Shown: positions 1 through 8,957 of the stretch, one piece after another | How the letters are laid out: every line of letters starts with the position of its first letter | How positions within the stretch are numbered: position 1 is the first letter of the stretch | Assembly (NCBI RefSeq): GCF_044324785.1 | Contig: NZ_CP172127.1 | Direction: 5' to 3' (one strand) | DNA: 64,000 nucleotides | Origin: Escherichia coli | GTDB lineage: Bacteria; Pseudomonadota; Gammaproteobacteria; Enterobacterales; Enterobacteriaceae | Notes under the pieces: model-generated | The model's input: the letters and a program-made list of their open reading frames with translations, nothing else | The model's database searches: none | Told to the model about the DNA's origin: nothing | Position numbers and translations under genes: made by a program

Positions 1-906
1 CCCTTTTTGCGTGTTAAACGCATAATAATAGGTCCCGAGCTGCGGCGGCGTATAAACCTGCCCCGGAATATCCTTCAACAGCTTCTGATACATATTTTTC
101 GGGAAGGATTCGGTGATATCAATATCCCCCGCGAGGTAACGCTTAGTGGCTGCGGATTCCTGATTAATTGGCAAGAAGGTCACTTTTTGCAGTACCGTTT
201 TGGCGTTATCCCAATAATGGGTATTCGGTACCACGACCAGTTTTTCATTGACTACGCGCTCTTCAAGAACATAAGCGCCATTACCGATCAGTTTTCCGGG
301 TTTCGTCCACTCTTTAATGCTTTCTACGTTGGCTTTTTGCACCGGGAAGAAGGCAAAGTTAGCGGTTAAATTCACAAACCACGGCAACGGTTTATCAAGC
401 TGGATTTTCAAAGTATGGGCATCAACTGCGGTGACGCCAAGCTGGTCAGGCGTGGCTTTACCATCAATAATCGCCTGTGCGTTGTTGATTCCCGCCAGCG
501 CGGCAAACCATGCAAATGGCGACAATGTTTTTGGGTCCACCAGACGTTGCCAGCTGTAGACAAAATCTTGCGCCGTTACCGGTGTGCCATCCGCCCATTT
601 TGCGTTATCGCGCAAGGTAAATGTCCAGATACGGTTGTCATTACTTTTCCACTGAGTCGCAACGCCGGGGACAATCTCCCCTTTCTCGTTCTGATTCACC
701 AGTCCTTCAAACAGATCGCGAATGACCTGAATCTCTGGCAGGCCCACGGCTTTAGCGGGATCCAGCGACGCAGGTTCATCTTTAATGTGGCGCACCAACT
801 CCTGCTTCTCTGCCAGTACTGTGCCGCTCGGAACTTCTGCAGCATACGAAAGAGAAATGCTGCTGACCAACAGCGCACAACACGTGACTGAAACAGAGTG
901 CTTCAT
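1..906 (-). CDS. mppA: Periplasmic murein tripeptide-binding protein, N-terminal part; 3' end lies beyond the window start
   Basis: Minus-strand translation from the ATG at 904-906 gives a signal peptide followed by an OppA-family substrate-binding protein; absent from the ORF track because it runs off the window. Plus-strand ORFs 7-891 are antisense artefacts. Confidence 0.8.
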   Translation of the reverse strand, partial: MKHSVSVTCCALLVSSISLSYAAEVPSGTVLAEKQELVRHIKDEPASLDPAKAVGLPEIQVIRDLFEGLVNQNEKGEIVPGVATQWKSNDNRIWTFTLRDNAKWADGTPVTAQDFVYSWQRLVDPKTLSPFAWFAALAGINNAQAIIDGKATPDQLGVTAVDAHTLKIQLDKPLPWFVNLTANFAFFPVQKANVESIKEWTKPGKLIGNGAYVLEERVVNEKLVVVPNTHYWDNAKTVLQKVTFLPINQESAATKRYLAGDIDITESFPKNMYQKLLKDIPGQVYTPPQLGTYYYAFNTQKG

Positions 907-1242
907 AAGTTTCCCTCTAACCGACATTAAAATTGATGCGTAATTATTTGTTTCGCCTTAAAGAAATGCAAACAACTTCCATCAAAAAAGTGACAAAGGA
1001 AGCATCAAATGTTTTAAGTATCAATATATCAAATCAGATTTAGCGTAAATAATAGTCTCCAAAATGCGGTAAAGCACATAGAACTCCGAACACTACGTTC
1101 GGGCTTCGCACGTTCAAACCCGTTTTCGGTATCATAATCAGCATCTGTCGCCATTGTGCGAAGAATAAAAAATGACCAAAACGTTGAAAGGAACTGAGAA
1201 TACGTTAAGAGAAGAATTAAATTAATGTATCAGCAAGTAGTG

Positions 1243-2142
1243 CTAAACAGCACCTTTATACTTCAGCCTATCTATAAATAATGAGAATGCCGAGCCAGCA
1301 TGTCGACGGTGTGGATAGTACAGGTGATAACCGGGTAAATCTGGTGTGAATTTATCCAAAACACGTATCAGTTTTTTTTCTTTAATAGCCCGCTCAACCT
1401 GATCATAAGGTAGATACGCCAACCCATGCCCATCAATTGCAGCATCAATGATCAGGTCTATCGTATTCAGTAAAAGCTGACCTTCCATGCGAACACGAAC
1501 TTCACGTCCACCGCGTATTAATCTCCAGCGATTTGCTGTACCCGATGTGGGAAGATACAAATTAATTGCCTGATGATCTATTAATTGTGACACTGACGTT
1601 GGAGCACTTCGACGAGAAAAATAATCCGGTGAGCCAACAATAGCCATTGGTATATCTGGCCCGATTCGAATGGCGATCATATCTTTATCCATCTCCCCAC
1701 CCAGACGGACGCCTGCATCAAAACGTTCAGAAACGACATCGGTCAAACCATAATCAATGGTAAGCTGGATATCAATTTCAGGATGCGATTTCAGGAATGT
1801 GCGCATAGCTGGTAACAATATCGTTTTTGCTGCATGTTCTACAGTAGTAATACGTATTGTCCCGGATGGGCGGTTCTGCAGATCGCTCAGGGATGTCAGG
1901 GCAGAATCTATGTCATGCAACATAGGGCCAAGAACAGACAAAAGATGCTCGCCCGCTTCAGTGGGTACAACGCTGCGCGTGGTTCGCGTCAGAAGCCGCA
2001 ATCCTAATCGTTCTTCTATACGGCGCACTATCTGGCTTAAAGCTGACTGCGCCATGCTCAGGCGGGCTGCTGCGCGAGTGAAGCTACGCTCCTCTGCAAC
2101 GACGACAAACGCCATCAGATCAGCGATTTCTTCACGCTTCAT
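1243..2142 (-). CDS. pgrR: LysR-family transcriptional regulator (PgrR/YcjZ)
   Basis: 299 aa; N-terminal helix-turn-helix (SFTRAAARLSMAQSALSQIVRRIEERLG) typical of LysR regulators; divergent from the ycjY operon. Confidence 0.85.
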   Translation of the reverse strand: MKREEIADLMAFVVVAEERSFTRAAARLSMAQSALSQIVRRIEERLGLRLLTRTTRSVVPTEAGEHLLSVLGPMLHDIDSALTSLSDLQNRPSGTIRITTVEHAAKTILLPAMRTFLKSHPEIDIQLTIDYGLTDVVSERFDAGVRLGGEMDKDMIAIRIGPDIPMAIVGSPDYFSRRSAPTSVSQLIDHQAINLYLPTSGTANRWRLIRGGREVRVRMEGQLLLNTIDLIIDAAIDGHGLAYLPYDQVERAIKEKKLIRVLDKFTPDLPGYHLYYPHRRHAGSAFSLFIDRLKYKGAV

Positions 2143-2163
2143 TCAGTATCTCCATACAATCTA

Positions 2164-2210
2164 TTAATCATTTAAATGATAGGTCTAATCATGATTTTGG
2201 GTCTAATCAA
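2164..2210. promoter_or_regulatory. Cluster of palindromes and direct repeats in the pgrR/ycjY divergent intergenic region; candidate LysR-type operator
   Basis: Perfect palindrome ATCATTTAAATGAT (2167-2180), palindrome AATCATGATT (2187-2196), and direct repeat GGTCTAATCA at 2182-2191 and 2200-2209. Confidence 0.4.
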
Positions 2211-2267
2211 CTTAATGATCAATATCTATAGTGATATCACCAACCGTCAAAACGAACCGACAACTCC

Positions 2268-3200
2268 ATGAGGAACGGAATGATGAATAATAAAGTCAGC
2301 TTCACTAACAGCAATAATCCAACCATCTCTTTGTCTGCAGTGATCTATTTCCCTCCAAAATTTGATGAAACCCGTCAGTATCCGGCAATTGTGGTATCTC
2401 ACCCAGGTGGGGGCGTTAAAGAGCAAACGGCCGGAACCTATGCCGAAAAACTGGCGGAAAAGGGATTTGTCACTATTGCTTATGACGCATCTTATCAAGG
2501 TGAAAGCGGCGGCGAGCCGCGTCAGTTAGAAAACCCATACATTCGTACTGAAGACGTCAGTGCCGTGATTGATTACCTGACAACGCTTTCTTATGTCGAC
2601 AATACCCGAATTGGTGCGATGGGAATTTGTGCCGGTGCAGGATATACAGCCAATGCTGCAATTCAGGATCGCCGCATCAAGGCCATCGGTACTGTTAGTG
2701 CGGTCAATATTGGTTCGATGTTCCGTAATGGTTGGGAAAACAATGTGAAATCTATTGATGCCCTACCATACGTTGACGCGGGTTCAAACGCCCGAACCAG
2801 CGATATTAGCAGCGGAGAATACGCCACTATGCCACTGGCACCAATGAAGGAGTCCGATGCGCCGAACGAAGAACTGCGTCAGGCCTGGGAGTATTACCAC
2901 ACCCCTCGCGCGCAGTATCCAACAGCACCGGGTTACGCTACTTTGCGCAGCCTTAACCAGATTATTACCTATGATGCTTACCATATGGCGGAAGTGTACC
3001 TGACTCAGCCGATACAGATTGTGGCGGGCAGCCAGGCAGGGAGCAAATGGATGAGTGACGACCTGTACGATCGAGCATCAAGCCAGGATAAACGCTATCA
3101 CATTGTTGAAGGCGCAAACCATATGGATCTTTATGACGGCAAAGCCTATGTGGCTGAAGCAATTTCAGTATTAGCTCCGTTCTTTGAGGAAACTCTGTAA
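2268..3200 (+). CDS. ycjY: Alpha/beta-fold hydrolase with Cys in the nucleophile elbow (GICAGAG), YcjY-like
   Basis: 310 aa; G-x-C-x-G nucleophile elbow; first gene of the operon divergent from pgrR. Confidence 0.75.
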   Translation: MRNGMMNNKVSFTNSNNPTISLSAVIYFPPKFDETRQYPAIVVSHPGGGVKEQTAGTYAEKLAEKGFVTIAYDASYQGESGGEPRQLENPYIRTEDVSAVIDYLTTLSYVDNTRIGAMGICAGAGYTANAAIQDRRIKAIGTVSAVNIGSMFRNGWENNVKSIDALPYVDAGSNARTSDISSGEYATMPLAPMKESDAPNEELRQAWEYYHTPRAQYPTAPGYATLRSLNQIITYDAYHMAEVYLTQPIQIVAGSQAGSKWMSDDLYDRASSQDKRYHIVEGANHMDLYDGKAYVAEAISVLAPFFEETL

Positions 3201-4132
3201 TGAAACATATTCAAATCCGCAATAGTGATATGGCCTGGCATATTGCTGCCAATATTCAGTTTCCACCAAATTTTGATGAGTCAAAACAGTATCCGGCGAT
3301 TATCAGCGTCCATCCTTTTGGCAGTTGTAAGGAGCAGACGTCTGGCAATATCTATGGCAAGGCATTGGCTGAAAAAGGCTATGTCGTTCTCGCTTATGAC
3401 GCCAGTTTCCAGGGAGAATCTGGTGGGGAGCCTCGTTGGATAGAAGATCCGACACAGCGCGTTGAGGATATTAGCCGTGTTATCGATTATGCAGTAACTC
3501 TGCCATATGTTGATGCTGAACGCATTGGCGTGCTGGGTGTGTGTGGGGGGGGTGGCTATGCCATTAATGCCGCGCTGACAGAAAAACGAATTAAAGCTGT
3601 AGTGAGTATTACGGGTGTTAATATCGGGCGTCTTTTTCGAGAAGGTTTCAGCAATTACGATCCGATTGGCGCATTGAATGCAATGGCGTCGCAACGAACC
3701 AAAGAGGCTCGTGGTGGAGAATTACAGATCAACGAATTACTTCCCGCCAGCCTGGATGCAGCAAAAGCCCATGGACTGACCGAACGCGATGTTTATGAAG
3801 CAACTGACTACTATAAAACACCACGCGGGCAACAACCGGGAGGTGCGACAAAAATGTTGTTCTCACATGCACAGAAAACGCTGGCCTGGGATGCCTTCGC
3901 ATTTACTGAAGTGTTACTGACTCAGCCGGTGATGGTAGTAGTTGGTGAAAAAGTCGGTGCCTTCGGTGCTTATCGTGATGGACTGGAAGTCTATGGCCGG
4001 GCGATGGTTTCGCAGGATCGTCAGTTAGTTTCGTTACCCGATTTCTCACATTATGAACTGTATGACAAACCGGAAGCAGTTCAGGAGGCGCTGGAAAAAG
4101 TTATTCCTTTTTTCAACACCCATCTGGGATAA
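3200..4132 (+). CDS. Tandem paralog of ycjY: alpha/beta hydrolase with Cys nucleophile (GVCGGGG)
   Basis: 310 aa, roughly 45% identical to the upstream gene by eye; stop/start overlap TAATG at 3198-3202 suggests translational coupling. Likely the intact form of the locus I recall as a pseudogene (ymjD) in K-12. Confidence 0.7.
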   Translation: MKHIQIRNSDMAWHIAANIQFPPNFDESKQYPAIISVHPFGSCKEQTSGNIYGKALAEKGYVVLAYDASFQGESGGEPRWIEDPTQRVEDISRVIDYAVTLPYVDAERIGVLGVCGGGGYAINAALTEKRIKAVVSITGVNIGRLFREGFSNYDPIGALNAMASQRTKEARGGELQINELLPASLDAAKAHGLTERDVYEATDYYKTPRGQQPGGATKMLFSHAQKTLAWDAFAFTEVLLTQPVMVVVGEKVGAFGAYRDGLEVYGRAMVSQDRQLVSLPDFSHYELYDKPEAVQEALEKVIPFFNTHLG

Positions 4133-4137
4133 GTTTC

Positions 4138-4788
4138 ATGAGAAATATTATGAAAAAAGTACTCATTCTTGGTGCTGGCGGTCAGATAGCCCGCCATGTG
4201 ATTAATCAACTGGCAGATAAACAAACCATTAAACAAACTTTATTTGCTCGTCAGCCAGCAAAAATACACAAACCCTATCCAACTAATAGCCAGATTATTA
4301 TGGGGGATGTACTGAATCATGCAGCACTGAAGCAGGCCATGCAGGGACAGGATGTTGTGTATGCCAACCTTACGGGGGAAGATTTAGATATTCAGGCAAA
4401 TTCAGTGATCGCTGCGATGAAAGCCTGTGATGTTAAACGTCTGATCTTTGTTCTTTCCCTCGGTATTTATGATGAAGTTCCAGGAAAATTTGGCGAATGG
4501 AATAATGCAGTTATTGGTGAACCCCTAAAACCATTCCGCAGGGCTGCGGATGCAATTGAGGCTTCTGGACTGGAATATACAATTCTTCGCCCTGCCTGGC
4601 TGACTGATGAAGATATTATTGATTATGAGCTTACCTCACGCAATGAACCATTCAAAGGTACGATCGTATCACGTAAGAGTGTCGCCGCATTAATTACAGA
4701 TATCATCGATAAACCTGAGAAACACATTGGTGAGAATATAGGCATCAATCAACCCGGGACTGATGGCGATAAACCCTTCTTCATGTAA
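4138..4788 (+). CDS. NAD(P)-binding Rossmann protein (NmrA/atypical-SDR-like)
   Basis: 216 aa; N-terminal VLILGAGGQIARH dinucleotide-binding motif. Probably the intact counterpart of the K-12 pseudogene ymjC. Confidence 0.65.
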   Translation: MRNIMKKVLILGAGGQIARHVINQLADKQTIKQTLFARQPAKIHKPYPTNSQIIMGDVLNHAALKQAMQGQDVVYANLTGEDLDIQANSVIAAMKACDVKRLIFVLSLGIYDEVPGKFGEWNNAVIGEPLKPFRRAADAIEASGLEYTILRPAWLTDEDIIDYELTSRNEPFKGTIVSRKSVAALITDIIDKPEKHIGENIGINQPGTDGDKPFFM

Positions 4789-5078
4789 ATCAATTATATA
4801 GCTACCATCGTACTGTACTATGTGCAGTACGATTTATTAAACTTATTAAGGTGAACTGATCAATCAGATGCGATTAACATGTGTAGAACCAGTAAGAATA
4901 AAATACGCCATGTATATAACATTACGACAATTCTAATATCTGCACATCAATGAAAATGCAAACAACTTCTGGCAAAAAAGTGATACAAGATCGATGACAT
5001 AGCGTTGAAGAAAAGGATTTGATAATCCGCAAAATTTGCACAACACTGCCTGTAATACTTCCTGAACCAGAGACGATC

Positions 5079-5807
5079 ATGACCGTAACCCGCCCACGCG
5101 CCGAACGCGGCGCATTTCCGCCCGGAACAGAACATTACGGACGTTCATTATTGGGCGCGCCGTTAATCTGGTTTCCTGCCCCTGCAGCCAGCCGCGAAAG
5201 TGGTTTGATTCTGGCTGGCACTCACGGTGATGAAAACTCTTCGGTCGTCACGCTCTCCTGTGCTCTGCGGACGTTGACACCTTCTTTGCGCCGTCATCAT
5301 GTGGTGCTGTGTGTAAATCCTGACGGCTGCCAGTTGGGGTTACGGGCCAATGCTAATGGTGTGGATTTAAACAGAAACTTTCCGGCGGCGAACTGGAAGG
5401 AAGGTGAAACCGTTTATCGCTGGAACAGCGCCGCTGAAGAACGTGATGTCGTTTTACTGACAGGTGACAAACCTGGCTCCGAACCTGAAACCCAGGCGCT
5501 GTGCCAGCTTATACACCGCATTCAACCTGCCTGGGTGGTCTCATTCCACGATCCACTGGCCTGTATTGAAGATCCCAGACACAGCGAATTAGGCGAATGG
5601 CTAGCCCAGGCGTTTGAATTGCCTCTGGTAACCAGCGTCGGTTATGAAACACCTGGCTCTTTCGGTAGTTGGTGTGCGGATCTCAACCTGCATTGCATAA
5701 CCGCAGAGTTTCCGCCCATCTCCTCCGACGAAGCCAGCGAAAAATATCTCTTTGCGATGGCAAACTTGCTGCGCTGGCATCCTAAAGATGCAATTCGCCC
5801 GTTGTGA
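5079..5807 (+). CDS. mpaA: Murein peptide amidase A (gamma-D-Glu-Dap amidase)
   Basis: 242 aa from the internal ATG at 5079 (MTVTRPRAERG...); the ORF-track start at 5019 is an upstream in-frame extension. Confidence 0.85.
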   Translation: MTVTRPRAERGAFPPGTEHYGRSLLGAPLIWFPAPAASRESGLILAGTHGDENSSVVTLSCALRTLTPSLRRHHVVLCVNPDGCQLGLRANANGVDLNRNFPAANWKEGETVYRWNSAAEERDVVLLTGDKPGSEPETQALCQLIHRIQPAWVVSFHDPLACIEDPRHSELGEWLAQAFELPLVTSVGYETPGSFGSWCADLNLHCITAEFPPISSDEASEKYLFAMANLLRWHPKDAIRPL

Positions 5808-6747
5808 ACTGAAGCGCCGGTTCCACATCTACCGCCAGCCAGGTCGGTCCGTCAAGATCGGCGAAACTGACCTGCGGCACCAGCGGTAAAGCGGCGCTAA
5901 TGGCACGAGAGGTACACAACATGCAGCCCAGCATCAGACTAAAACCTTGTGCACGTGCTTCAGTCGCCAGCGCCAGCGCTTCCGTCAGGCCACCCGTTTT
6001 ATCGAGCTTAATGTTAACCATCTCATAGCGCCCTTTCAGCGCCTTCAGATTGCTACGAGTATGACAACTTTCATCTGCACAAATCGGTAACGGATGAATA
6101 AAATTCTCCAGTGCCGCATCGTCCTGCGCAGGGAGCGGTTGTTCAAGCATCGCAACGCCTAAATCCGCCAATAGCTGGCAACGCGCCGCCAACCCTTCTG
6201 CACGCCAGGATTCATTTGCGTCAACGATCAGCGTCGCATCGGGCACAGCTGTGCGAATTGCCACCATCCGCTCACTGATAAGATGGTTATCCAGCTTCAC
6301 TTTCAGTAATTTCGCGCCTGCCTGCCAGAATGTTGATGCACTATTGGCCATCTGATCAGGCGTACCGATGACTACCGTCTGTGCAGTGGTGACTATCTCG
6401 GGAAGCGTTACGCCGATCAAATCAGCCAGCGATTGCTGCTGTTTTCGCGCCGCCAGATCCCACAATGCACAATCCAGCGCATTACGTGCTGCGCCGGCAG
6501 GGAGAATTTTTTGCAACTCCTCCCGTGTCAGCCCTTTCTCTAATTGCGGCACGACGCTCATAATTTGCGCCATTACCGAGGCATCACTTTCTCCATAGCG
6601 CGGATAGGGCGTGCATTCACCGGTGCCTTTAATACCCTCTTCTTCCAGTTCAACCACCACCACGCGCGCTTCACTGCGACTTCCCCGAGCAATCACAAAC
6701 GGGGTATGTAAGGGCCAGGCTTCCTCAAATACCTTAACGGTTCTCAT
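5782..6747 (-). CDS. ycjG: L-Ala-D/L-Glu epimerase (enolase superfamily)
   Basis: 321 aa from MRTVKVFEEAWPL; 3' end overlaps the mpaA 3' end by 26 bp (convergent). Confidence 0.85.
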   Translation of the reverse strand: MRTVKVFEEAWPLHTPFVIARGSRSEARVVVVELEEEGIKGTGECTPYPRYGESDASVMAQIMSVVPQLEKGLTREELQKILPAGAARNALDCALWDLAARKQQQSLADLIGVTLPEIVTTAQTVVIGTPDQMANSASTFWQAGAKLLKVKLDNHLISERMVAIRTAVPDATLIVDANESWRAEGLAARCQLLADLGVAMLEQPLPAQDDAALENFIHPLPICADESCHTRSNLKALKGRYEMVNIKLDKTGGLTEALALATEARAQGFSLMLGCMLCTSRAISAALPLVPQVSFADLDGPTWLAVDVEPALQFTTGELHL

Positions 6748-6865
6748 CTTTACTCCTTGTTGTCGCAGTGGTCTGCGGATTAAGCGCAAATAGCGTTTGC
6801 TGTGTTATTGACAGTTAGCATAAACTAGGTGTGACGTTAACTATATGTAAACAGGAAAGATAATC

Positions 6866-7372
6866 ATGTCACAAACCGTTCATTTCCAGGGCAACCCGGT
6901 TACAGTCGCCAATTCCATCCCGCAGGCGGGTAGCAAAGCGCAGACTTTTACTCTCGTGGCAAAAGATCTGTCTGACGTCACCCTCGGTCAGTTTGCGGGT
7001 AAACGCAAAGTGCTGAACATTTTCCCGAGTATTGATACCGGTGTTTGCGCCGCATCAGTACGTAAGTTTAACCAACTGGCAACAGAGATCGACAACACCG
7101 TTGTGCTGTGTATCTCTGCCGATCTGCCGTTCGCCCAGTCTCGTTTCTGCGGCGCAGAAGGTCTGAACAACGTTATCACCCTCTCCACTTTCCGTAACGC
7201 TGAGTTCCTGCAAGCTTACGGTGTGGCAATTGCTGATGGCCCACTGAAAGGTCTGGCAGCGCGTGCCGTTGTGGTTATTGATGAAAATGACAATGTGATT
7301 TTCAGCCAGCTGGTGGATGAAATCACCACCGAGCCGGATTACGAAGCAGCTCTGGCTGTACTGAAAGCATAA
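6866..7372 (+). CDS. tpx: Thiol peroxidase
   Basis: 168 aa; matches remembered Tpx sequence. Confidence 0.9.
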
Positions 7373-7376
7373 GTTA

Positions 7377-7410
7377 ATATGCCTGATGGTGTTGCACCAT
7401 CAGGCATATT
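7377..7410. terminator. Bidirectional stem-loop between the convergent tpx and tyrR genes
   Basis: 15-bp inverted repeat ATATGCCTGATGGTG / CACCATCAGGCATAT. Confidence 0.7.
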
Positions 7411-7415
7411 CGCGC

Positions 7416-8957
7416 TTACTCTTCGTTCTTCTTCTGACTCAGACCGTATTCCCGCAACTTATTGGCAATCGCGGTATGCGAAACGCCCAGGCGTTTTGCC
7501 AGTTTGCGCGTGCTGGGATAATTGCGATAAAGCTGGGTTAATACCGAGCGTTCAAAACGGCTGGTGATTTCGTCCAGCGAACCTTCCATCGCATCTTCGC
7601 CCACGGCTACCGTTGCGGCGTCATAATCCGGTAACAAAATATCCTGTGGACGCAGCTCATAACCGTCCAGTTGTGTTAGTGCGCGATAAATAGCGTTCTT
7701 TAACTGCCGCACATTTCCCGGCCACGCATAACGCGTAAGTACAGTATTCAGGTCAGCGGCCAGTTTCGGACGCGGCACGCCCTGCTCGTCGGCAAAGCGG
7801 GCGACGAACAGCTCGGTTAACGGCATGATGTCCTGCGGACAGTCACGTAGCGGCGGCAGATTGAGCGTCAACACGTTCAGACGATAATAGAGATCTTCAC
7901 GGAACACGCCTTTTTGCACCAGTTCGACAAGATTCTTCTGCGTCGCGCAAATCACCCGCACATCGACATGCACCTCATGGTCTTCGCCAACCCGACGGAA
8001 AGTGCCATCATTAAGGAAACGCAGTAATTTCGCCTGCATCCGTGGTGACATCTCACCTATTTCATCCAGCAGTACCGAACCACCGTTCGCCTGCTCAAAG
8101 AACCCTTTCTTCCCTTCCGGAGCATGACCAAACAGTTCACTCTCGACCGCATCTTCCGGGATAGAAGCACAGTTCAGCGCCAGATAGGGTTTGCCCGCGC
8201 GTGGGCTTGCCTGATGACAGGCATACGCAAAGAGATCTTTTCCGGTGCCGGTATCACCCGTAATCAGCAGCGGCGCGCTTAGCATCGCCAGTTTTTGCGC
8301 CTGTTCGACAACATGCTTCATTTTCGGGCTGACAGCGACAATTTGACTAAAGGCGCTGACGTCCTGGGCGGCGACATTTTGCAACTGACGGCCCATACGA
8401 ATCGTTGATCGCAACATCACCACCGCACCGGTCAGGACGTGTTGATCATTTTCATCCTGAAGATAAACAGGCGTAATCTCCATCAGGAAATTCTGCCCAT
8501 TAATAACGACATGCTCGTTATGCGAATCTTGCGGTTCGCTTTCCAGCCAACGTAAAAAATTAAAGCCGTTAATCAATTGTGCGGCGGTATGGTTGCGCAG
8601 GCGATCCAATTTTTGCCCAAAAAGCTGACAGCTCGCCGGGTTCGCCATATCCACTTTGCTTTTCATATCGACAGAGAGCACAGGTTCAGGCAACGCCTCC
8701 AGTAACGCGCTCAACGCCAGATGCTCACGTTCGGAAGGCATCCACGGGACAGTACGGACATCGGTAACACCTGCAATACGGCGTATTTCGGCCATCAGAC
8801 TGCTGAAACTCTCAAACTCCAGTTCAGCAAAATTGAGGTAGATTCGCCCAATGGGGTCAATCTCAATACCGCGTAAATCAATGCCTCTTAGCACGAGTAG
8901 ATCGAGTAATTCGCGGGTCAGACCGAGTCGGTCTTCACAAAAGACTTCCAGACGCAT
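7416..8957 (-). CDS. tyrR: Transcriptional regulator TyrR (sigma-54-interaction-type AAA+ domain)
   Basis: 513 aa from MRLEVFCEDRLGL; GDTGTGKD Walker A and C-terminal helix-turn-helix. Confidence 0.9.
   Translation of the reverse strand: MRLEVFCEDRLGLTRELLDLLVLRGIDLRGIEIDPIGRIYLNFAELEFESFSSLMAEIRRIAGVTDVRTVPWMPSEREHLALSALLEALPEPVLSVDMKSKVDMANPASCQLFGQKLDRLRNHTAAQLINGFNFLRWLESEPQDSHNEHVVINGQNFLMEITPVYLQDENDQHVLTGAVVMLRSTIRMGRQLQNVAAQDVSAFSQIVAVSPKMKHVVEQAQKLAMLSAPLLITGDTGTGKDLFAYACHQASPRAGKPYLALNCASIPEDAVESELFGHAPEGKKGFFEQANGGSVLLDEIGEMSPRMQAKLLRFLNDGTFRRVGEDHEVHVDVRVICATQKNLVELVQKGVFREDLYYRLNVLTLNLPPLRDCPQDIMPLTELFVARFADEQGVPRPKLAADLNTVLTRYAWPGNVRQLKNAIYRALTQLDGYELRPQDILLPDYDAATVAVGEDAMEGSLDEITSRFERSVLTQLYRNYPSTRKLAKRLGVSHTAIANKLREYGLSQKKNEE

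Follow-up and report, generated by a model that had tools for sequence, protein, structure and literature searches.

Between mppA and the murein tripeptide amidase gene mpaA, some strains of Escherichia coli carry two intact hydrolase genes and an intact reductase gene, and the question is whether these genes belong to murein-peptide catabolism or came to this place with a role of their own. We analyzed them in a 64,000-nt stretch of E. coli DNA (contig NZ_CP172127.1, assembly GCF_044324785.1; hereafter the window, whose positions serve as coordinates), where they occupy positions 2268-4788 of the + strand. Based on comparisons with other genomes, it is very probable that they are part of a mobile cassette that was inserted between mppA and mpaA and was later reduced by two deletions, both of which are found in K-12. 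The cassette would consist of the LysR-type regulator PgrR, its operator and a three-gene operon (YcjY, a second hydrolase and an NAD(P)H-dependent atypical short-chain dehydrogenase/reductase, SDR) closed by its own hairpin terminator. The cassette and its borders comprise the following features:

964-993: left copy of the 30-bp direct repeat AAATGCAAACAACTTCCATCAAAAAAGTGA, 27/30 identical to 4954-4983
1243-2142, minus strand: pgrR (ycjZ), LysR-type regulator of the cassette, divergent from hydrolase 1 (RefSeq annotation)
2163-2208: conserved operator region (alignment of 19 pgrR-hyd1 intergenic regions)
2280-3200, + strand: hydrolase 1, which is YcjY (elbow Cys117 codon 2628-2630, His281 codon 3120-3122; E 1.5e-201 to PDB 5XB6)
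3200-4132, + strand: hydrolase 2, 310 amino acids, a YcjY paralogue absent from K-12 (Cys115 codon 3542-3544, His284 codon 4049-4051)
4150-4788, + strand: NAD(P)-binding atypical SDR, the intact form of K-12 ymjC (Pfam NAD_binding_10; PDB 3QVO match)
4807-4839, + strand: terminator-like hairpin, putative end of the cassette operon (RNA folding)
4954-4983: right copy of the 30-bp direct repeat, 27/30 identical to the left copy
4954-5078, + strand: putative native mpaA upstream region with the conserved block TTTGCACAACACTGC, 76% identical to its Citrobacter counterpart

Insertion in the mppA-mpaA intergenic region

The genes mppA and mpaA stand divergently side by side, with about 185 nt between them, in Citrobacter, Enterobacter mori, Klebsiella oxytoca and Pantoea. 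The cassette is absent from these loci, and ycjG, tpx and tyrR come next as they do in E. coli. The Citrobacter MpaA protein is 93% identical to that of E. coli, and the Citrobacter mppA-mpaA intergenic DNA aligns to window positions 701-993 and 4954-5300 in two alignments that overlap by 30 bp. The 30-mer AAATGCAAACAACTTCCATCAAAAAAGTGA flanks the cassette on both sides in every Escherichia allele and is present as a single copy in Citrobacter (locus L044, 5875-5904). Comparison with this uninterrupted site shows what appears to be an insertion of about 4 kb (window ~994-4953) in the Escherichia intergenic region that duplicated 30 bp of its target. The 125 bp upstream of mpaA are, judging from the alignment, the native upstream region of this gene, and their TTTGCACAACACTGC block is also visible 5' of mpaA in Enterobacter and Klebsiella. 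DNA homology to the enterobacterial cassette copies runs from the pgrR stop codon (1242/1243) to just past the SDR stop codon or the hairpin, and the G+C content of the cassette is 42-49% vs 54% for mpaA and ycjG. The 30-bp repeat is unusually long for a transposase target duplication, and the cassette has no integrase. When the repeat was searched as a possible att site beside the cassette copies of other genera, none was found.

The cassette in other genomes and on plasmids

A scan of one genome per species gave 36 loci, and tblastn was run with the window proteins as queries; 35 non-Escherichia loci were of the cassette type. These defined queries replaced a naive clustering of the longest open reading frames (ORFs), which gave antisense artefacts in GC-rich neighbourhoods. 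A divergent PgrR orthologue (57-88% identity) was located beside hydrolase 1 (74-93%) and hydrolase 2 (61-89%) in 18 genomes, and the two hydrolase genes adjoined each other in 22. Hosts of the cassette are Serratia, Citrobacter sp., Pseudocitrobacter, Shimwellia and about 15 Alphaproteobacteria. The relatives of hydrolase 2 from Serratia and Klebsiella are 85-87% identical to it, and those from Afipia, Mesorhizobium, Agrobacterium, Paracoccus and Sphingobium 79-83%. A divergent LysR gene followed by two hydrolases and a NAD_binding_10 protein, with no mpaA, is the arrangement seen in Serratia marcescens and Afipia carboxidovorans. Genes for MpaA, YcjG and Tpx were identified by tblastn near none of the 35 non-Escherichia loci, and the hydrolases and the reductase are not conserved together with mpaA, ycjG and mppA across genomes. 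The cassette was also found on a conjugative IncF plasmid of K. pneumoniae beside IS110, on the K. variicola IncF plasmid NZ_CP103422.1 beside IS1, and on an Agrobacterium plasmid. Hence the same gene set occurs in unrelated contexts and on plasmids, and in Escherichia it is accompanied by an insertion scar and has an empty counterpart site in Citrobacter, as befits a mobile cassette.

The cassette hydrolases of Gamma- and Alphaproteobacteria share about 80% protein identity which, together with the invariance of their catalytic candidates (see below), argues for strong purifying selection on the cassette in general. Hydrolases 1 and 2 form two separate orthologue clades, so their duplication is older than the spread of the cassette. 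Concerning the SDR, it is intact in seven loci and a remnant in four, the remnants being visible only at a relaxed tblastn threshold. Fragments or internal deletions were located in Serratia sp. PL17, Citrobacter sp. Awk4, Agrobacterium leguminum and Camelimonas lactis (remnants at L008 9989-10132, L009 9940-10182, L013 9945-10046 and L014 9983-10216), which points to a repeated decay that parallels ymjC of K-12. The partners that recur with the hydrolases are NAD_binding_10 SDRs, classical SDRs, an old yellow enzyme (OYE) flavin oxidoreductase and a flavodoxin-like protein, and a LysR sensor is always present.

Some copies differ in their composition. The S. marcescens cassette (L004, 7624-11105) has an extra adh_short gene before the conserved terminator, and further along the same strand there are genes for another adh_short protein, a Flavodoxin_4 protein and an OYE-type oxidoreductase. 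On the K. variicola plasmid (L049; both modules within 952-7933) a second module adjoins the cassette and encodes a LysR regulator, an alpha/beta hydrolase, an SDR and an OYE-type NADH-dependent flavin oxidoreductase. In a metagenome-assembled genome of Hyphomicrobiaceae (L021, 8008-10899) the order of the paralogues is swapped to LysR, hydrolase 2, hydrolase 1.

Alleles in E. coli and decay in K-12

An allele survey of 5426 complete E. coli genomes revealed three structural classes of the 5-kb region. Strain N3 (99.7% identical to the window) and strains of O157, O145 and O111 have both hydrolases and the SDR; the ST131 strain EC958 has ycjY and an intact SDR; and in K-12 BW25113 the intact ycjY is separated from mpaA by a 138-nt pseudogene with the label 'NAD-dependent dehydratase'. 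Deletion 1 (window 3255-4121, 867 bp, in frame) removes hydrolase 2 and leaves ymjD, a 21-codon in-frame remnant that reads MKHIQIRNSDMDWHIAANNLG up to its stop. Deletion 2 (window 4289-4952, about 664 bp) removes most of the reductase gene together with the hairpin and leaves ymjC, which consists of 46 reductase codons (a 138-nt N-terminal piece) and is flagged as a pseudogene in K-12. The original prediction, made from the DNA letters before any database search, had taken the two middle genes to be pseudogenes in K-12, and these remnants agree with it.

Hydrolase 2 is present in 1282 of the 5426 genomes (24%), and 1271 genomes have the intact allele with full-length ORFs. The deletion-1 junction occurs in 3821 genomes (70%), the 3' part of the SDR in 2926 (54%) and the deletion-2 junction in 2293 (42%), K-12 included. 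From the alignments of these alleles, the intact one must be ancestral and deletion 2 must have arisen on a deletion-1 background. The intact form of the locus is already common and annotated in RefSeq, annotations of all three genes exist for thousands of genomes, and two of its proteins are structurally solved (5XB6 and 3QVO).

Outside E. coli, Escherichia sp. E1V33 (L041, 7937-10944) carries the K-12-type double-deletion allele, with PgrR 99% and YcjY 98% identical; the decayed allele would then be old, or would have moved by recombination. In K-12, no more than 3 nt separate the right end of deletion 2 from the point where the right 30-bp repeat begins, at the edge of the inserted DNA, which may be a coincidence or a mechanistic link. 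At the 5' end of the reductase gene (4138-4161 vs L001 3272-3286) there is a 12-nt indel, the intact allele having MRNIMKKVLILG / MKKVLILG and the deletion-bearing alleles MKNVLILG. One assembly shows a 489-amino acid fusion of hydrolase 2 and the reductase, probably by stop-codon loss, frameshift or sequencing error. More distant genes of the YcjY family, 52-63% identical to hydrolase 2 and apart from the chromosomal locus, occur on some E. coli plasmids of 30-134 kb.

Gene models and neighbouring genes

The region has three successive + strand ORFs at 2268-3200 (310 amino acids), 3200-4132 (310 amino acids) and 4138-4788 (216 amino acids). The original prediction described two adjacent hydrolases of 310 amino acids and about 45% identity; the pair was confirmed, with a measured identity of 42% over 299 amino acids (BLASTP, E 4e-72), and hydrolase 1 turned out to be shorter. 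Its start at ATG 2280 gives 306 amino acids, matches RefSeq and PDB 5XB6 and aligns across genera, and the four extra codons of the longer ORF contain a Shine-Dalgarno sequence, GAGGA. The predicted TAATG junction of the two genes is indeed present, as a one-base overlap in ctgTAATGaaa. The reductase starts in RefSeq at window position 4150 (212 amino acids) vs 4138 for the longest ORF. As had also been predicted, this protein is an intact Rossmann protein followed by mpaA, an NCBIfam NF007897 equivalog with 479 bits vs a cut-off of 157, and pgrR is divergent with mppA and ycjG close by. The spacer between the reductase gene and mpaA is 290 nt long and has 34.5% G+C. The neighbouring genes are:

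1-906, minus strand: mppA, 5' part, extending past the window start (RefSeq annotation of strain N3; ORF begins MKHSVSV)
5079-5807, + strand: mpaA, murein tripeptide amidase, a neighbour outside the cassette (NCBIfam NF007897; gene contexts in other genera)
5782-6747, minus strand: ycjG, after mpaA

The hydrolase pair

Both hydrolases show full-length sequence and fold similarity to 5XB6 (YcjY) and 2HDW (PA2218), which places them in the YcjY/PA2218 family. Their elbow motifs, AMGICAGAGY (GICAGAG) in hydrolase 1 and VLGVCGGGGY (GVCGGGG) in hydrolase 2, are both of the G-x-C-x-G type. Of 65 diverse full-length representatives of the family, 58 have Cys at the elbow and two each have Ser, Ala and Gly; the C-terminal His is present in 59. 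In the cassettes, Cys115, His284, E45, D67, R130 and Y204-Y205 are invariant in 68/68 hydrolases. The AlphaFold2 model of hydrolase 2 (pLDDT 96.4) places Cys115 at the elbow between strand 104-114 and helix 116-127, and His284 directly after the last strand (274-283). Accordingly the two hallmarks of the alpha/beta-hydrolase fold, the G-x-Nu-x-G nucleophile turn and the His in the loop after the last strand, are both found.

The canonical acid after strand beta-7 is a different matter. Both paralogues and 68/68 cassette copies have Gly at this position (253), just 24 of the 65 family representatives have D or E there, and no conserved acid was identified between residues 249 and 284 in the family and cassette alignments. 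D67, D105 and E/D128 were weighed as replacement acids, and the model topology appears to place none of them beside the His loop. A putative Cys-His pair is supported by the alignments and the model; a canonical triad is not supported. For the original prediction, this means that its Cys at both nucleophile elbows is well borne out, as are the positions of Cys and His of the catalytic triad expected on structural modelling, and that the canonical acid of this triad was not found.

Its suggestion of dienelactone-hydrolase-like thiol hydrolases stands for the Cys nucleophile, at the sequence and fold level, and falls for the profile and the acid position. The dienelactone hydrolase profile (PF01738 / EC 3.1.1.45) was matched only at about positions 10-129 of 217 (E 8e-9 and 6e-8), more weakly than Peptidase_S15, and there is no Asp after beta-7 and so no Cys-His-Asp triad; the label is loose. 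In Pfam, both hydrolases matched Peptidase_S15, DLH, Hydrolase_4 and Abhydrolase_1 with E values from 1e-7 to 1e-11, mostly over the N-terminal half. The best NCBIfam match of both paralogues was the UilS N-acyl-homoserine lactone (AHL) lactonase (NF047920; E 1.4e-24 and 1.3e-21), with 87.3 and 77.6 bits vs a curated cut-off of 400, so that membership in this family was rejected. Among solved folds the nearest were YcjY (5XB6, comparison value 43.7) and PA2218 (2HDW, 38.6), followed by the thioesterase DcsB (7D78, 34.1), a Chloroflexus hydrolase (7QJM, 34.1) and GrgF (6LZH, 32.5), the last described as a cysteine hydrolase (bioRxiv 10.1101/2020.12.16.421545); the classical dienelactone hydrolase 1din gave 21.8. 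DcsB and GrgF are the nearest functionally characterized folds. A literature search on structure 5XB6 found no paper, and the papers that name ycjY or ymjC give no biochemical function.

The reductase

The reductase matches NAD_binding_10 (PF13460) over its full length (E 3.4e-54, model positions 1-184 of 184) and PDB 3QVO with E 2e-138. Its N-terminal glycine-rich dinucleotide-binding motif is ILGAGGQIA. It also weakly matches ChuY/ShuY and the biliverdin-IX-beta/flavin reductases (E ~1e-6).

Operator, terminator and control by PgrR

The palindrome ATCATTTAAATGAT at 2167-2180 is a LysR box of the T-N11-A type, ATTNATCA-N6-TGATA, and a second conserved block, GTCTAATC, is located at 2201-2208. 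Both are kept in all 19 aligned cassette copies from Gamma- and Alphaproteobacteria, and in K-12 the ycjY/ycjZ spacer is among the PgrR targets obtained by SELEX (PMC5934670). At the other end, 19 nt past the SDR stop codon, there is a hairpin with a 12-bp stem followed by UUUAUU. It folds at -16.8 kcal/mol (z -3.8), none of 200 shuffled sequences folds as well, and it is 81% identical over 53 nt to the hairpin of the Serratia operon (-21.2 kcal/mol, followed by UUUUU). A scan of 2100-5200 for consensus promoters and terminators gave sites no more numerous than in shuffled sequence and missed the hairpin at 4807-4833, and an Rfam scan of 800-5200 at E <= 0.1 found no match.

The operon of the intact allele is therefore probably hyd1-hyd2-sdr only, to judge from the hairpin and the native mpaA upstream region. 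The original prediction had placed mpaA in the same operon as a fourth gene; beyond the neighbourhood, a four-gene operon is not supported, and those two elements separate the reductase gene from mpaA. Deletion 2 removed the hairpin and ended near the right repeat, and we infer that the 'ycjY-ymjDC-mpaA operon' of K-12, and perhaps the control of mpaA by PgrR, may reflect this deletion.

Explanations of the locus

In the explanation that we favour, the cassette entered the mppA-mpaA gap and then underwent deletion 1 followed by deletion 2, and its functions would be as follows. The paralogues would be cytoplasmic hydrolases of a small ester, lactone or thioester, and would go through a thioester acyl-enzyme by means of the elbow Cys and the C-terminal His, with no canonical acid. 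The substrate or the product would present a carbonyl, enone or quinone on which the reductase acts, and PgrR would sense one of these compounds. The pathway would serve accessory catabolism or detoxification and have no relation to murein peptides, as favoured by the recurrent reductase partners and the constant LysR sensor. The control of mpaA by PgrR in K-12 would come from read-through opened by deletion 2. We regard this explanation, taken in full, as fairly probable; its biochemical and regulatory parts, taken jointly, are put forward tentatively and may well not all hold.

Several observations weigh against it. Many cassette copies lack the SDR or have it in decayed form, so hydrolases and reductase are not obligatorily coupled, and NmrA-like proteins can have regulatory instead of catalytic roles. 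The tail of the hairpin is just UUUAUU, so read-through into mpaA may be substantial. A link to the cell wall is compatible with the K-12 regulon of PgrR, which is reported to include ycjY-ymjDC-mpaA and ycjG (PMC5934670), and with the filamentation caused by ycjY over-expression (PMC3614548).

The last two observations also favour the view of the original prediction, a fuller murein-peptide pathway in which the four genes are one operon and the hydrolases and reductase process murein tripeptide derivatives around MpaA and YcjG. PgrR is named for peptidoglycan recycling, the genes are located between mppA and mpaA/ycjG, and the peptidase S15 and S9 families are among the best Pfam matches, although these matches span just the generic N-terminal half of the fold. 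However, over 20 further genomes, and plasmids as well, carry the cassette with the same regulator and operator and with no murein-peptide gene (mpaA, ycjG or mppA); mppA adjoins mpaA in four other genera; the locus shows an insertion scar, a terminator-like hairpin and the native upstream DNA of mpaA; and about 76% of the E. coli genomes have mpaA without hydrolase 2. The murein-peptide link of the cassette, for which its position in Escherichia, the K-12 regulatory data and the filamentation by YcjY are the sole arguments, is not supported, and we consider the extended pathway very unlikely. There is a similarly slim chance that the hydrolases are quorum-quenching AHL lactonases of the UilS/AidA type. 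UilS, the best NCBIfam match of both paralogues, belongs to the alpha/beta hydrolases, bears the annotation of a dienelactone hydrolase and was shown to degrade AHLs (PMC11633161). Yet the scores of 87 and 78 bits are far under the curated cut-off, and a lactonase would not account for the conserved pair of paralogues, the reductase or the LysR sensor. The cassette is present as separate genes in Serratia marcescens, and E. coli is not known to make AHL.

It is less improbable, but still not likely, that the cassette is functionally irrelevant cargo being lost from E. coli, the intact allele having merely not yet decayed and having no selective value. Such a loss would agree with the two nested deletions, which are frequent (70% and 42% of genomes), and with the independent decay of the SDR in Serratia sp., Citrobacter sp., Agrobacterium and Camelimonas. 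In spite of this, full-length ORFs are kept in the 1271 genomes with the intact allele, ycjY is intact even in K-12, and hydrolases 1 and 2 are 80% conserved across bacterial classes with all their catalytic candidates invariant. The mobile cassette with an accessory pathway is the explanation that we retain.

Significance

Both the label 'putative peptidoglycan degradation' of ycjY and the name of PgrR derive from K-12, a strain in which the cassette and mpaA were brought together by a deletion. According to the comparative evidence the cassette is foreign to the murein-peptide genes, which calls for caution with annotations derived from adjacency. E. coli strains would differ in the wiring of mpaA. 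A further proposal, which we judge possible though somewhat short of an even chance, is that PgrR is by origin a dedicated sensor of the cassette rather than a regulator of peptidoglycan recycling, that its control of mpaA in K-12 is an accident of deletion, that mpaA is PgrR-independent in intact-allele strains such as O157:H7, and that the cassette provides a new catabolic or detoxifying activity from Escherichia to Rhizobiales. What is useful here is the history of insertion and deletion and the suggestion that the coupling of PgrR to mpaA is specific to the K-12-type allele. For the study of function, a conserved Cys-His hydrolase pair with a dedicated LysR sensor is available as natural intact, single-deletion and double-deletion alleles, which are ready genetic material.

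Comparison with known systems

The cassette hydrolases belong with YcjY (PDB 5XB6) and P. aeruginosa PA2218 (PDB 2HDW) to the same COG1073 / YcjY family of alpha/beta hydrolases, and hydrolase 2 differs from YcjY in being absent from K-12 and in forming its own orthologue clade. The fungal trans-acting polyketide hydrolases DcsB (7D78) and GrgF (6LZH) share 19-20% sequence identity with them. DcsB has a Ser at the elbow, unlike the cassette Cys, and the substrates of DcsB and GrgF are carrier-protein thioesters in fungal gene clusters, whereas there is no polyketide synthase near the cassette. ClcD (PDB 1DIN) is similar in its Cys nucleophile within an alpha/beta fold, and the chlorocatechol pathway in its divergent LysR regulator and in the action of a hydrolase followed by an NAD(P)H-dependent reductase. 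The reductase shares its full-length NAD_binding_10 domain with the BLVRB / ChuY / NmrA-like atypical SDRs, and its own structure, 3QVO, is labelled just 'NmrA family protein'. Another related system is the ycjY-ymjD-ymjC-mpaA transcription unit of the K-12 PgrR regulon (Shimada et al. 2013, cited through PMC5934670 and PMC6448482), which has the same locus, regulator and promoter region as the window. In K-12, ymjD and ymjC are deletion remnants, the terminator is gone and the native mpaA upstream region is abutted, whereas in the window the genes are intact and the hairpin is present.

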